A stretch of 64,000 bases of DNA from Escherichia coli (lineage in GTDB: Bacteria; Pseudomonadota; Gammaproteobacteria; Enterobacterales; Enterobacteriaceae). Positions within the stretch are counted from its first letter, which is position 1. Each line of letters begins with the position of its first letter. The stretch lies in assembly GCF_003334405.1 (NCBI RefSeq), contig NZ_QOWM01000001.1. One strand, 5' to 3'. Of the stretch, positions 21,501-27,500 are shown piece by piece. The position numbers were made by a program.

Positions 21501-24500
21501 TTATCCGCCTGTTTACTATCCCGGAAAGCACCTGGCCGCTGGTCACCATGGTGGTGATTATGGGGCCAATCTCGTTCTGGGGGAACGTTGTCCCTCGTGC
21601 CTTCGAACGTATTGGCGGTACGGTGTTGGGGTCGATTTTAGGTCTTATCGCTCTGCAACTGGAGTTAATTTCGTTACCGCTGATGTTAGTCTGGTGCGCG
21701 GCGGCGATGTTTCTTTGCGGTTGGCTGGCGCTGGGCAAGAAACCGTATCAAGGATTATTGATTGGGGTGACGCTGGCAATTGTTGTGGGTTCCCCGACAG
21801 GTGAAATTGATACGGCGTTATGGCGAAGCGGCGATGTGATCCTCGGCTCTTTACTGGCAATGTTGTTTACCGGTATCTGGCCACAACGGGCGTTCATCCA
21901 CTGGCGCATTCAACTGGCGAAAAGTCTGACCGAGTATAATCGGGTCTATCAATCTGCATTCTCACCGAACTTACTCGAACGCCCACGTCTGGAAAGCCAT
22001 CTACAAAAACTGCTGACCGATGCCGTGAAAATGCGTGGGCTGATTGCGCCCGCCAGCAAAGAAACCCGTATTCCCAAATCGATATATGAAGGTATCCAGA
22101 CCATTAACCGCAATCTGGTTTGTATGCTGGAGTTGCAAATCAATGCGTACTGGGCCACGCGCCCCAGCCATTTCGTGTTATTGAACGCGCAAAAACTTCG
22201 TGATACCCAGCACATGATGCAGCAAATACTGCTGAGCCTTGTTCATGCGCTGTACGAAGGTAATCCGCAGCCGGTTTTTGCCAATACGGAAAAATTGAAC
22301 GATGCTGTGGAAGAGCTGCGTCAGTTGCTCGATAACCACCATGACCTGAAGGTTGTGGAAACACCAATCTATGGTTATGTGTGGCTGAACATGGAAACGG
22401 CACATCAGCTTGAGTTGCTATCGAATCTGATTTGCCGGGCCTTGCGCAAATAATTCCTGAACTTCAGAATCATCTTGCTGCTGCTTCGATTCAGCAAGGA
22501 TAAAGGGTATGATAGTGAAAAGGGATAAAAGCATTGTCATCTGCGGCAGCTATGAGTAATGTTGGCCCTAACGAATAGCGGTTGCTTAAACGAATCCGAC
22601 TCTCACATTATCAGGGGTATAAAAATGGAAACTACCAAGCCTTCATTCCAGGACGTACTGGAATTTGTTCGTCTGTTCCGTCGTAAGAACAAACTGCAAC
22701 GTGAAATTCAGGACGTTGAGAAAAAGATCCGTGACAACCAGAAGCGCGTCCTGTTGCTGGACAACCTGAGCGATTACATCAAGCCAGGGATGAGCGTTGA
22801 AGCAATCCAGGGCATCATCGCCAGCATGAAAGGTGACTATGAAGATCGCGTTGACGATTACATCATCAAAAATGCCGAGCTCTCCAAAGAACGCCGCGAT
22901 ATCTCCAAAAAGCTGAAAGCTATGGGCGAAATGAAAAACGGCGAAGCGAAGTAATTCCCGTTTTATTCAATGAGGGTTGCCCGGCAACCTTCATTGCTCA
23001 TTGATTCTTATCTGTGTATCACCGTCATCATTCTCATCTGAGAACCAATCGAAATTAACAACAGCCTTCTTCTGTATGCAGCAAGGCAAAAAGTTCTGTA
23101 ACTCCATTGTTATTAACTGCACTGGTTACTAACACGTTGTGCGCTCCAGCTTCCCGTAACCAACTTTTCACCAAAGATATTTGTTCCATGCTGGCTAAAT
23201 CTGCTTTGGTTACTACTCCAATGACCGGGTGATTCATGGCCCGGTAGGGCGTTTTTACCTCTAATTCCTGCTTCAGCGCTGAGATTCCTGCTTGTTGCCG
23301 GAAAAGCAGGCACCTGCCGTCTGAACGGTATCGATCCGGAAGCGTATCTGCGCCATATTCTGAGCATACTGCCGGAATGGCCCTCCAACCGTGTTGACGA
23401 ACTCCTGCCATGGAACGTAGTTCTCACCAATAAATAAGCGTCAATACGGTGCTCCGTTGACGCTTACTTTAATCCGTTTTCTGAGCTTAGATTTTTCTGT
23501 TCCTACCCAGACCGTGGATTTGGAATTCATTTTTTGTCAGGTCAATGCTAATCGTTAAAACGGCCATAACGCACCTCCACTGGAAGGTTTATCAGTAATA
23601 TCCTACCGTTGCTTCATGGTCGGGGCGTCCATTCCATTATTATCGGTTTTCCTTTCTGTTTATAAATGAAAACGCCAGCTGTATTCAGGCTGGCGTCAGG
23701 GGAAATGAAGCCTGTTGAGTGAGATTCACCGGTTCTGGTGCAGAAGCTGCAGATGGCGCAGGGTAAGGACATCTTCTCTTGCCTGCTTAATACAGGACAA
23801 CAGTGCTGTTTCTGTGGTTAATGGCACTATACCCTGCATCACTGCATTGTCTTACAGCAACTGGTGAGGGCTGGCATAAGTTGCCGGTGTTTCGGTAGAG
23901 TCACGGTCATCCACCACGCGGAGTGAATAACCGTTTTCAGCGGCCTTATTAATCAGTTCAGTGATATTAACACCATCAATGTCAACGACAATGTGCCCCA
24001 TATCCAGCGCCTGTACGTTAACGCTGTCGGCTTCCAGTGTCATCATTTCGCCTCCGGATACTTACCCAGGGTAATGTTATTTACCGTTCTGTAATTGTCG
24101 CGGGTCATCAGGCCGGTCGCCCTGCGAGCCCGGAGGATATCGATGCTGTTTATTAACTGAGAGCGGGTACCGGGGTATACAGCAGGGAGGGGGGCTGCAG
24201 GAAGGCAACTGGAAGGATAGGAACTGAGCGGTTCAGTCGCGGAAATCAGTTGCAGAGCTGTAATGATATCTCCGGGAGTGCTGCGTTGGTAGGGGCATCC
24301 CGGGATAGAGAAATTTTAGCACTTTGCCCTGAATGATTGTAGACGTTCCGAGTACTCGTACCGGTCTGAGTTATTACAGTTAGATATTCACTTTTTCTCC
24401 CGCATACTTCACATCTGTCAACGACGGATGAAAAGTGGTTCTTCCGCAACCTGGGTGGAAGAAAATGGATGAAACTTTCTGGCGAACAAGGATCTAAGCT

Positions 24501-27500
24501 GTTTTAAGTTATGGGCAACGCAATGCACTCTCTTAAGACACTTCTACAGTTACCTTGCGGATGGCGATGCAGTCGACAAATTATTAGCTCTGACGGTATA
24601 ACCCTCCATCTCCACGGAAAACGCAAAACAGCACAATGTCCTGAATGCTTTAAGCGTAGCGACTCTGTTCATAGTTGTCGTCGGCGCCGGATACAGCATC
24701 TACCCTGCTCAGGGCAGACGCTATGGCTTGTATTTTCCGTCCGCCACTGGTACTGCCGTAACCCGGCTTGTTCACGTAAAATTTTTGCCGAGTCGCTTGC
24801 TCCCTTCGCCGGTTCACACCAGCAGTCTTCACAGGCGTTACAAAATTTACAACGTCAACTGGGATTAATAGCTGGAGGTGAGGCTGGAAAACGGGCTGCA
24901 ACGGCAGCGGGTCTCCGTTGCAGTGCTGATACTCTTCTTCGCAGGGTTATCAATACCCCGGAGACGAAACAGTCAGGCGCGCCTCATGTCGGTATTGATG
25001 AGTGGGCGTGGCATCGGGGCCACTGCTGCGGTATGTTAATAGTCAATCTTGATACTCACCGTCCCCTCGTCCTGCTTCCCGGCCGTGATCAGCGTACGCT
25101 GGCGACCTGGTTCAGAAAATATCCGGAAATACAGGTTGTCTCGCGTGATCGCAGTGGAGTCTATGCGACAGCAGCACGTGAAGGTGCACCTCAGGCCAGA
25201 CAGGTGGCCGATCGATGGCACCTGCTAAAAAATATTGGGAGCCTGAACGAATGATGTACAGACATATGCCTCTGATACGTCTTGTTGTCAGAGAGTTATC
25301 ACTGAAGAAATCACCTGAGCCAGAAATATCTGTGCCTGTAGCATCGCTCCGTCGTCTGGAACGCCTTAAACAGCACATCCGCAAAAAACGGCATCAGCGT
25401 TGGACAGAGGTTATGGCCCTGCATAACAAGGGATGTAGTTTCAGGGAAATATCCCGTATTACAGGCCTGTCGCGAGTGACAGTCAGTCGCTGGGTGGGTT
25501 CAGGAACATTCCCTGAAATGTCAACTAGGCCTCCAAAGCGAGGGCTTCTGGACCCATGGAGGGAGTGGTTAAAAGAGCAACGAGAATGTGGTAATTATAA
25601 CTCCGGCCGGATATGGCGGGAAATGGTGGCCAGGGGGGTTACAGGCAGTGAAACCATCGTCAGGGATGCTGTTGCCAAATGGCGTAAAGGCTGGATCCCA
25701 CCGGTTACTACTGCCGCAAGACTTCCTTCAGTGTCCCGGGTAAGCCGCTGGTTGATGCCCTGGAGAATAATCAGGGGTGAAGAAAATTATGCTTTCCGAT
25801 TTATTAGTCTGATGTATGAAAAAGAACCGGAGTTGAAAATAGCGCAGCAACTGGTACTCGAGTTCTACCGTATTCTGAAAACCTAAAATAAATCACAGCT
25901 AAGCAGCTGGTTCACTCGGGTCCACGAAAGCGGCTCAGCAGAACTTCGGTGCGTAGCTGCGGGGATGGAAGCTGATGCTGCGGCTATATGTGAGGCAATC
26001 AGCAGTCGCTGGAGTACTGGTGTTGTCGAAGGTCATGTAAATCGCCTGAAGGTGCTGATACGCCAGATGTATGGTCGAGCCGGACTTGAACTACTTAGGC
26101 GGAGGGTAATGAGTCCACTGGCATGAAAATCTTCACCCAGGTTGCGGAAGAGCCACTTTTGCACTGTTCGTGACAGTATGGCCTTTATGTACTCACTTTG
26201 TTACCGGTAGCTGGATCATCACTACCGTGCTGCAAATGGTGGTGAACAGCATCAATTGTGGAATGAATGTTGCCGAAGCGACCAATGCGCCTCGTTTCCA
26301 CTATCAGTGGTTGCCGGACGAGCTGCGTGTTGAAAAGGGTTTAGTCCGGATACGCTCAAGCTGCTGGATGCAAAAGGTCAGAAAGTGGCGCTGAATGAGG
26401 CGATGGGCAGCACGCAAAGCATTATGGTTGGGTCGGATGGTGAGTTGTACGGCGCATCCGACTCGCGCTTGGTGGATGATTTAACGGCGGGGTATTAATT
26501 GACATCCCCCGGCGCAATGTGCCGGGGGATAATGGTTTTATGCGGTCAATAATCGTCCGGGATTATCGATACAGAGTTTTTTGAGGATCGTTTTATCGAC
26601 GCCGCGCTCCGCCAGATAGGCCAGAAAAACATCTGGAACAAATCCCCAGCCATTACCGCCATTTTTAGCCCACATTTGTTTAAGGAAGACATCGTGGCTG
26701 AGAACAAGCTGATCGGCGTATCCCAACTCAATGAGATGAGCGACGGCATCGGCAGTCTCCTGCACCCCTGGCGCTATTCCCTCTTTCGGGAAGGTAATGT
26801 CTAGGCCAATCATGTCGAATTCCAGCCAGACACCTTTATCAAGCATTTTCCGCTGATACGCCACGTCTTTTCCTGACGGATCCGAGTGTGCGAGAGAGAC
26901 TTTATTTGGCGAGACGCCCATTTCACCTAACACAATGTCGAGTACTTCATCACCGCGACGAAGCCAGCCCGGCATGTGAATATTCATCGCCACATGAGGA
27001 TTGTTAATCTGTGCCAGCGAGGCAGCCCGCAAGCTGTTATGCTCGGCTTCGGTAAATGTCGGTGAAACACCTATTTCACCGATCATTCCGGCACGAATAT
27101 CCGTATCGCCAATCCCTTGATTCAATTCTTTATCGATCGTTGTCGCCAGTTCATCAACCGTTTTATGAATTCTCTGGCTTTCAAATTTTTCCAGGTAGGG
27201 ACCGGAGGAAGCAACAATATTCAGACCTGTTTTTAATGCGACTTCTCGTAATGCCTGCGCATCTCGTCCGATAGACTCAGACCCTGTGGCATCAATAATG
27301 GTGCGACCACCGAGCGAGATAAAGTTATTAATTTCGAAGATCACATCTTCAATAGGTTTGCGGTCCATATTATCAGCGCAGCAATAAGGATCGTGTTTTA
27401 ATGCCCACTGGATTTCTGCCGTGACTTTTTTATCAACAAGCCGTTGTGAAAAAGGATAGCAAGGAGCATCCACAACAGAGGAAAGATCGTTGAACAGATG

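Follow-up and report, generated by a model that had tools for sequence, protein, structure and literature searches.

A degenerate ISEc38 copy at a probable rearrangement junction in a decayed CP4-44-position island of Escherichia coli

The canonical elements of the ISL3 family of insertion sequences (ISs), such as ISL3, IS1165 and IS204, carry a DDE_Tnp_ISL3 transposase domain, an N-terminal zinc ribbon and terminal repeats with a GG(C/T)TCTTC-type motif, and target duplications in the family are usually 8 bp long. By the ISfinder convention, elements with at least ~95% nucleotide identity are regarded as the same IS. In E. coli K-12, the decayed CP4-44 prophage region has the gene order yeeW-cbtA-cbeA next to yeeX/yeeA. 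Here we analysed a 64,000-nucleotide stretch of E. coli contig NZ_QOWM01000001.1 (assembly GCF_003334405.1), referred to as the window, in which an ISL3-type element lies between a fragment of the toxin gene cbtA and a 3' fragment of the gamma-glutamyltransferase gene ggt (ggt'). The explanation that we consider very probable as a whole is that this element is a dead copy of ISEc38 standing at a fixed, old rearrangement junction in a decayed island at the CP4-44 position.

Judged from sequence comparison, the element is a degenerate and non-autonomous copy of ISEc38, a member of the ISL3 family. Compared across its whole length with intact 1,764-bp copies annotated as ISEc38 on E. coli F-type plasmids, it shows 95.3% identity, with 83 differing columns out of 1,764 of which 79 are substitutions, a level that lies within the ISfinder convention. 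The intact plasmid copies encode a 539-aa protein that NCBI names 'ISL3-like element ISEc38 family transposase', and the RefSeq label in matching genomes is a pseudogenised ISL3 family transposase. The left end of the element at 24416 (TGTCAACG...) and its right end at 26175 (...CGTGACA) were defined by four independent insertion contexts (L006, L007, L008 and L011), whose sequences diverge exactly outside these two positions. The preliminary description had recognised a defective ISL3-family element, and this is borne out by the match to ISEc38, by the ISL3 profile matches and by two disabling lesions; comparison of the inverted repeats and the transposase with those of ISEc38 likewise gave a match across the full length with the same ends. 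The extents of 24431-26160 proposed at that time do mark a pair of repeats, but the true ends lie 15 bp further out at either side. The element and its parts are as follows.

24416-26175, plus strand: degenerate ISEc38, 1,760 bp, placed by full-length identity to intact copies and by the ends seen in four insertion contexts.
24416-24458, plus strand: left terminal inverted repeat, 43 nt, with the outer 22 nt and the canonical ISL3-type core GGTTCTTCC from 24437.
26133-26175, minus strand: right terminal inverted repeat, with the core ...GGAAGAGCC finishing at 26154.
24511-26126, plus strand: transposase pseudogene (intact homologue 539 aa), aligned with the intact ISEc38 gene (L006 1596-3215) and matched by the ISL3 profiles of Pfam and NCBIfam.
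25238-25239, plus strand: frameshift, a 4-bp deletion with TGAT lost between these positions, placed by a three-way alignment with an intact copy and the common chromosomal allele.
25884-25886, plus strand: premature stop TAA, which is CAA in intact ISEc38.

Repeat detection returned two arms, 24415-24457 and 26134-26176, that are 43 nt long and 81% complementary. The 43-nt terminal repeats of the element are imperfect, with 34 of 43 positions matching between the arms, and the near-perfect 27-bp repeats reported before are found inside them, where 24431-24457 and 26134-26160 agree at 26 of 27 positions. The repeat core pattern is present at just these two sites in the 64-kb window, with 0 expected in shuffled sequence, and the repeat ends coincide in the four insertion contexts, as they should for the terminal inverted repeats of an ISL3/ISEc38 element. 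The GG(T/C)TCTTCC motif, which is the canonical ISL3 terminus, sits 22 nt inside the real ends of ISEc38. A Klebsiella relative with 73% identity conserves the outer 22 nt, which therefore belong to the IS. That the outer 21-22 nt could instead be target sequence was considered and ruled out, since the duplications fall outside them and the same Klebsiella relative retains them. An exact-match scan for the left end of the IS in one genome per species gave no match, therefore ISEc38 itself is absent from those representative genomes.

Three open reading frame (ORF) pieces lie between the arms, at 24511-25254, 25215-25886 and 25965-26126. The first piece matches Pfam DDE_Tnp_ISL3 (PF01610) and Zn_ribbon_ISL3 (PF14690), so that both the DDE domain and the N-terminal zinc ribbon of an ISL3 transposase are present, and the first and third pieces match NCBIfam NF033550 (ISL3 family transposase). 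The score for NF033550, whose cut-off is 180 bits, was 239 bits for the N-terminal piece alone and 374 bits for the intact homologue. A transposase frame broken by a frameshift and a stop, as first described, was found again in the form of the TGAT deletion and the TAA at 25884-25886, which leave the window copy without the intact ORF of an autonomous element. The TAA stop is also present in the common chromosomal allele, which RefSeq flags as 'internal stop', and the 4-bp deletion is confined to a minority of copies, most chromosomal matches spanning 2,005 and not 2,001 bases. In the intact ISEc38 homologue, a profile search recovered both halves of the DDE domain (residues 160-295 and 413-534), which are arranged around an insert of ~120 aa that contains a helix-turn-helix (HTH) motif and whose equivalent in the window is held by 25215-25886. 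The 539-aa protein is unusually long because its DDE domain carries this insert, which has a weak resemblance, at 61 bits and thus under the cut-off, to the N-terminus of IS21-family transposases.

The genome counts for this locus refer to a set of 5,426 complete E. coli genomes. Of these, 2,763 contain the 2-kb region that surrounds the element at a coverage of at least 80%, with a median of one place per genome, and the junction between the left flank and the IS and that between the IS and ggt' are present in 2,827 and 2,647 genomes, respectively. A query with 24166-24415 found the left flank, a single-copy sequence, in 2,849 genomes. In the matching genomes (about 2,650-2,830 of the total), RefSeq annotates an ISL3 transposase pseudogene followed by a gamma-glutamyltransferase pseudogene. 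Despite repeats that look intact, the element is inert, as its transposase is lost and it has stayed unmoved in about 2,800 genomes. It is an old, fixed and already annotated feature of the genomic island between cobU and yeeX/tmaR, and this site is very likely the CP4-44 position and the island a decayed one, a view that we hold as part of the overall explanation and with the same confidence. The window copy is ordinary, given that ISEc38 has been catalogued already and that thousands of E. coli genomes in RefSeq list both the element and the ggt stub as pseudogenes.

Other copies were examined to establish what ISEc38 leaves at its target. The duplications that it generates on either side of the 1,764-bp unit are 5 bp long, and in one case six bases match. 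One copy on plasmid NZ_CP019954.1 is flanked by a CCATG duplication, a chromosomal copy (L043) by CAAGA, and a 47-bp remnant, described below, by GACAG. The same plasmid carries two inverted copies with the reciprocal flanks TCCCGG/GTAAT, as expected after recombination between them; these flanks indicate an inversion of ~24 kb between the two copies. The window copy has ACATC on its left and GTATG on its right, which share 2 of 5 positions and do not form a 5-bp duplication, and the flanks also differ at 8 bp, the duplication length typical of the family, so the lack of an obvious 8-bp duplication noted in the preliminary description was confirmed. With 5-bp duplications established as the baseline, the absence of one here argues that the window copy marks a junction of unrelated DNA blocks. 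This suggests that the IS stands at a rearrangement junction, plausibly an IS-mediated one, and not at a simple insertion, and its two flanks are indeed of two origins, island DNA on the left and a ggt-locus block on the right. The features on the right side are listed below.

26176-26198, strand not applicable: spacer, 23 nt between the end of the IS and the start of ggt homology.
26199-26498, plus strand: ggt 3' stub, equivalent to nt 1432-1743 of K-12 ggt (the last 312 nt), with a 12-nt deletion and a 1-nt frameshift.
26504-26530, plus strand: terminator-like hairpin between the convergent ggt' and phosphotriesterase genes.
26538-30583, minus strand: phosphotriesterase-related gene, DMT transporter gene (internal stop), GATase1-like gene and PfkB kinase gene, assigned from RefSeq and synteny.

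The ggt stub shares 92.2% nucleotide identity with K-12 ggt and 81-86% with the Salmonella and Citrobacter genes. It is not a full-length gene, as only nt 1432-1743 remain and these are deleted and frameshifted; homology to the K-12 locus ends at the ggt stop codon, and the sequence downstream of the stub differs from the native locus. Together with the phosphotriesterase-DMT-GATase-PfkB genes, the stub forms a 4.5-kb block, in which 26205-30678 is colinear with native ggt loci at about 76% identity. In Salmonella and Citrobacter, the native ggt faces a convergent PfkB-GATase-DMT-phosphotriesterase operon, with yhhA and the ugp genes coming next. The genomes in which orthologues of the phosphotriesterase gene were detected belong to S. 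bongori, S. enterica, S. enterica subsp. diarizonae and several species of Citrobacter. Because 26205-30678 is colinear with native ggt loci and ggt' is closest to E. coli ggt, the stub represents the border of a 4.5-kb block that was moved away from the surroundings of an Escherichia-like ggt, and not a paralogue decayed in place.

A chimeric query of ggt and phosphotriesterase found no intact ggt beside the phosphotriesterase gene at a coverage of at least 80% in any of the E. coli genomes surveyed. Some part of this query matched 5,425 of the 5,426 genomes with a median of one place. Among the genomes listed, those with the stub locus had matches at more than one place, as would fit a native ggt located elsewhere; the native locus of the genome that contains the window falls outside the window. 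None of the representative genomes of non-coli Escherichia carries the phosphotriesterase gene, and no closer Escherichia donor was found. In E. coli, the phosphotriesterase operon and the ggt stub are located in the island between cobU and yeeX, not at the native ggt. The DMT (YdcZ-type) gene of the operon, at 27575-28540 on the minus strand of the window, is split by its internal stop into ORFs of 87 aa and 202 aa; RefSeq treats it as a pseudogene in matching genomes, and certain other strains have an intact gene.

How the IS and the stub came together was then considered. Simple insertion of the IS into ggt was ruled out, since no ggt homology was detected in the left flank by either blastn or tblastn. 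The right end of the IS had been thought to abut the ggt fragment, which holds roughly, with a gap of 23 bp from the true end and of 38 bp from the end proposed earlier. Removal of the 5' part of ggt by the IS, claimed at the same time, is plausible with the stub only 23 bp away, but E. coli has no intact copy at this place and no empty site is seen. We infer that ISEc38 either cut ggt or joined the island to the ggt' block. Most likely, ISEc38 would have joined the island module to the ggt' block via an IS-mediated event, which could have been recombination between two copies, an adjacent deletion or a translocation. On the left of the IS lies the tail of a CP4-type island module with zinc-ribbon genes, and on its right, after 23 nt, ggt' with the phosphotriesterase-DMT-GATase-PfkB operon. 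Once the junction had formed, the transposase gene would have decayed, and the element is left only as a marker of the scar.

Several findings weigh against this explanation. Neither an empty ancestral site nor a second ISEc38 copy with reciprocal flanks was found: the 5,426 E. coli genomes contained no reciprocal product or empty site, nor did the species-representative genomes that encode a relative of the phosphotriesterase, and junction-spanning and flank-only searches gave no IS-free version of either flank. In addition, 23 nt separate the IS from ggt', and the truncation of ggt may predate the arrival of the IS. Duplications are also missing from several intact ISEc38 copies, so that their absence here is weak evidence when taken alone. 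A partial match to the left flank (H161) was inspected as a candidate for the empty site and rejected, as it represents an unrelated IS3 insertion.

Two fragments of IS66-family elements also bear on the history of the block.

23309-23470, plus strand: IS66-family fragment, inverted partner of 30689-30850.
30689-30850, minus strand: IS66-family fragment at the far edge of the ggt'-PfkB block.

These fragments are 162 bp long, 88% identical and inverted with respect to each other, and they bracket the yeeW-cbtA'-ISEc38'-ggt'-PfkB segment. It is therefore conceivable, if rather unlikely, that the IS was a bystander, in which case the ggt stub would have been truncated before its capture, for example by IS66-family elements, and ISEc38 would have inserted beside it later and lost its duplication through a small deletion or decay. 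The stretch of 23 nt that separates the IS end from ggt' belongs to neither of the two and matches no ggt of K-12, Salmonella or Citrobacter, and the syntenic block stops at 30678, just before the second IS66-family fragment at 30689-30850, both of which would fit such a history. However, 2 of 5 shared positions in the flanks are too few for a decayed 5-bp duplication when the element itself is ~4.5% diverged, and the left flank was never seen without the IS. Joining of the island to the ggt' block through ISEc38 thus remains the explanation that we prefer.

The preliminary description had gone further and attributed the losses on both sides to the IS. A single ISL3 element, or deletions mediated by it on both sides, would have truncated both cbtA and ggt and removed the remaining prophage. 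The position of the IS between two gene fragments without a target-site duplication, and the start of ggt' within 23 bp of its right end, are in keeping with this proposal, but the structure of the left side, given below, makes it highly improbable.

24043-24168, minus strand: cbtA 3' fragment, the last 41 codons and the stop, identified by translation, Pfam CbtA_toxin (PF06755) and the RefSeq annotation of strain DLI.5a.
24166-24170, strand not applicable: deletion joint, a 5-bp microhomology GGTAC with 1,184 bp missing relative to strain 33-6.
24166-24228, plus strand: tail of the second zinc-ribbon (DUF7828) gene, its last 63 bp, colinear with L001 5866-5928 inside the coding sequence 5518-5928.
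24229-24415, strand not applicable: conserved left flank of the IS, 187 bp.

Translation of the minus strand of 24043-24171 gives GTRSQLINSIDILRARRATGLMTRDNYRTVNNITLGKYPEAK followed by the stop. This CbtA fragment covers columns 84-112 of the 112 columns of Pfam CbtA_toxin and so falls short of a full-length domain, and RefSeq labels the equivalent gene 'missing N-terminus'. NCBIfam gave zero matches for the short cbtA, yeeW and zinc-ribbon peptides, although Pfam did identify the cbtA fragment. The left end of the IS does not abut the break in cbtA as had been proposed, as the break is at 24166-24170, 246 bp to the left of the IS end. Strain 33-6 retains a full-length (frameshifted) cbtA, the yeeU remnant and both zinc-ribbon genes; positions 23000-24170 of the window align to 2601-3771 of its locus (L004) and 24166-24600 to 4956-5388, with 3772-4955 (1,184 bp) missing from the window. 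This deletion took the 5' part of cbtA, the yeeU remnant and two zinc-ribbon genes.

From 24166 rightwards, the window is colinear with thousands of genomes, in which that position is the interior of a zinc-ribbon gene and not cbtA. About 2,830 other genomes, in which both zinc-ribbon genes are retained, are colinear with the window over the 250 bp between the break and the IS, and the cbtA joint itself was found in two further complete genomes only, DLI.5a and AST46. Truncation of the toxin gene by the IS is thus contradicted, because the break lies 246 bp away at a GGTAC joint and a standard flank stands between the two; the toxin gene was truncated by ordinary decay of the island. These comparisons show that the cbtA truncation is a later, IS-independent microhomology deletion specific to this lineage. 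The proposal of a single element acting on both cbtA and ggt is further weakened, since the joint occurs in just three genomes counting this one, while the 250 bp next to it are the standard flank in about 2,830, and 24166-24415 is excluded from being IS sequence by the insertion contexts as well as by the flank survey. Nor did the IS remove the rest of the prophage, as much island DNA persists on its left in most genomes with the same IS, and genomes with identical IS and ggt' junctions keep many island genes there, including those for Gp2/YfjJ-like, AlpA-like, antirestriction and DUF932 proteins and others.

E. coli lineages differ in the nested deletions that they carry in the stretch from the DUF957 remnant to the zinc-ribbon genes (L004 3433-4955, L005 3432-3651 and window 24166-24170). 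REL606 is without yeeW, cbtA and the yeeU remnant, and the window is without the stretch from the 5' part of cbtA through the zinc-ribbon genes. These nested deletions represent stepwise decay of the island, and the island loss in the window lineage arises from them. A related pair of zinc-ribbon genes has its second member truncated by an intact ISEc38 in the mouse E. coli strains RSHH22 and SK6988, where the opposite end of this IS adjoins an IS66-like fragment (L011/L012, 739-1000). The IS is active in these two strains, whose chromosomes carry 9-10 ISEc38 copies. A promoter scan of the region gave no consensus sites.

ISEc38 also exists in a second form, in which nt 19-1746 are identical but the outer 18 nt at the two ends have swapped places as reverse complements, so that the interior is inverted relative to the outer ends. 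This form was seen on plasmid NZ_CP019954.1, where 95538-97301 can be compared with 105962-107725, and in two further loci (L042 and L043, from position 2501). At least 338 E. coli records contain the swapped left end at 99-100% identity, and the form is seen in several contexts, one of which (L043) has its own 5-bp duplication. Furthermore, a solo remnant of 47 bp, TGTCAACGACGGATGAAAAGTG-ATC-CACTATTGCACCGTTCGTGACA, consists of the outer 22 nt, ATC and the outer 22 nt (L036/L037, 2501-2547). It occurs in 514 genomes inside an IS3-family transposase pseudogene, flanked by GACAG, and probably goes back to one ancestral event. The breakpoints of both the flip and the deletion lie where the near-perfect part of the repeats begins. 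The swapped and solo forms may have arisen by hairpin or template-switch recombination between the element's own repeats, or by transposase cleavage at inner termini. It is possible, though we suggest it only tentatively, that ISEc38 holds two nested sets of ends, the outer TGTCA termini of the 1,764-bp unit and an inner canonical ISL3 terminus, at exactly whose boundary the interior of the swapped form is inverted. The swapped and solo ends could interest researchers of ISL3 transposition. The window locus in itself is of little significance, and its useful corrections are the true ends of the element and the truncation of the toxin gene by an unrelated microhomology deletion.

Compared with known systems, the window copy resembles ISEc38 in its length class, its ends, its 95.3% identity and its single ORF encoding a zinc ribbon followed by a DDE domain with an HTH insert, and differs from it in having a 4-bp deletion, a stop, no duplication and one fixed site. 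ISEc38 in turn has the same DDE domain, zinc ribbon and repeat motif as canonical ISL3 elements; in contrast to them, its motif is 22 nt inside the ends, its duplication is 5 bp and not 8 bp, and its transposase is ~100-140 aa longer. The island occupies the same position as CP4-44 of K-12, and yeeA, yeeX/tmaR, an EutP-like gene, DUF957, yeeW and cbtA remnants are common to both. In the window, however, cbtA is cut to 41 codons, cbeA is absent, and the region runs on into the zinc-ribbon remnant, the ISEc38 copy, ggt' and the phosphotriesterase block.

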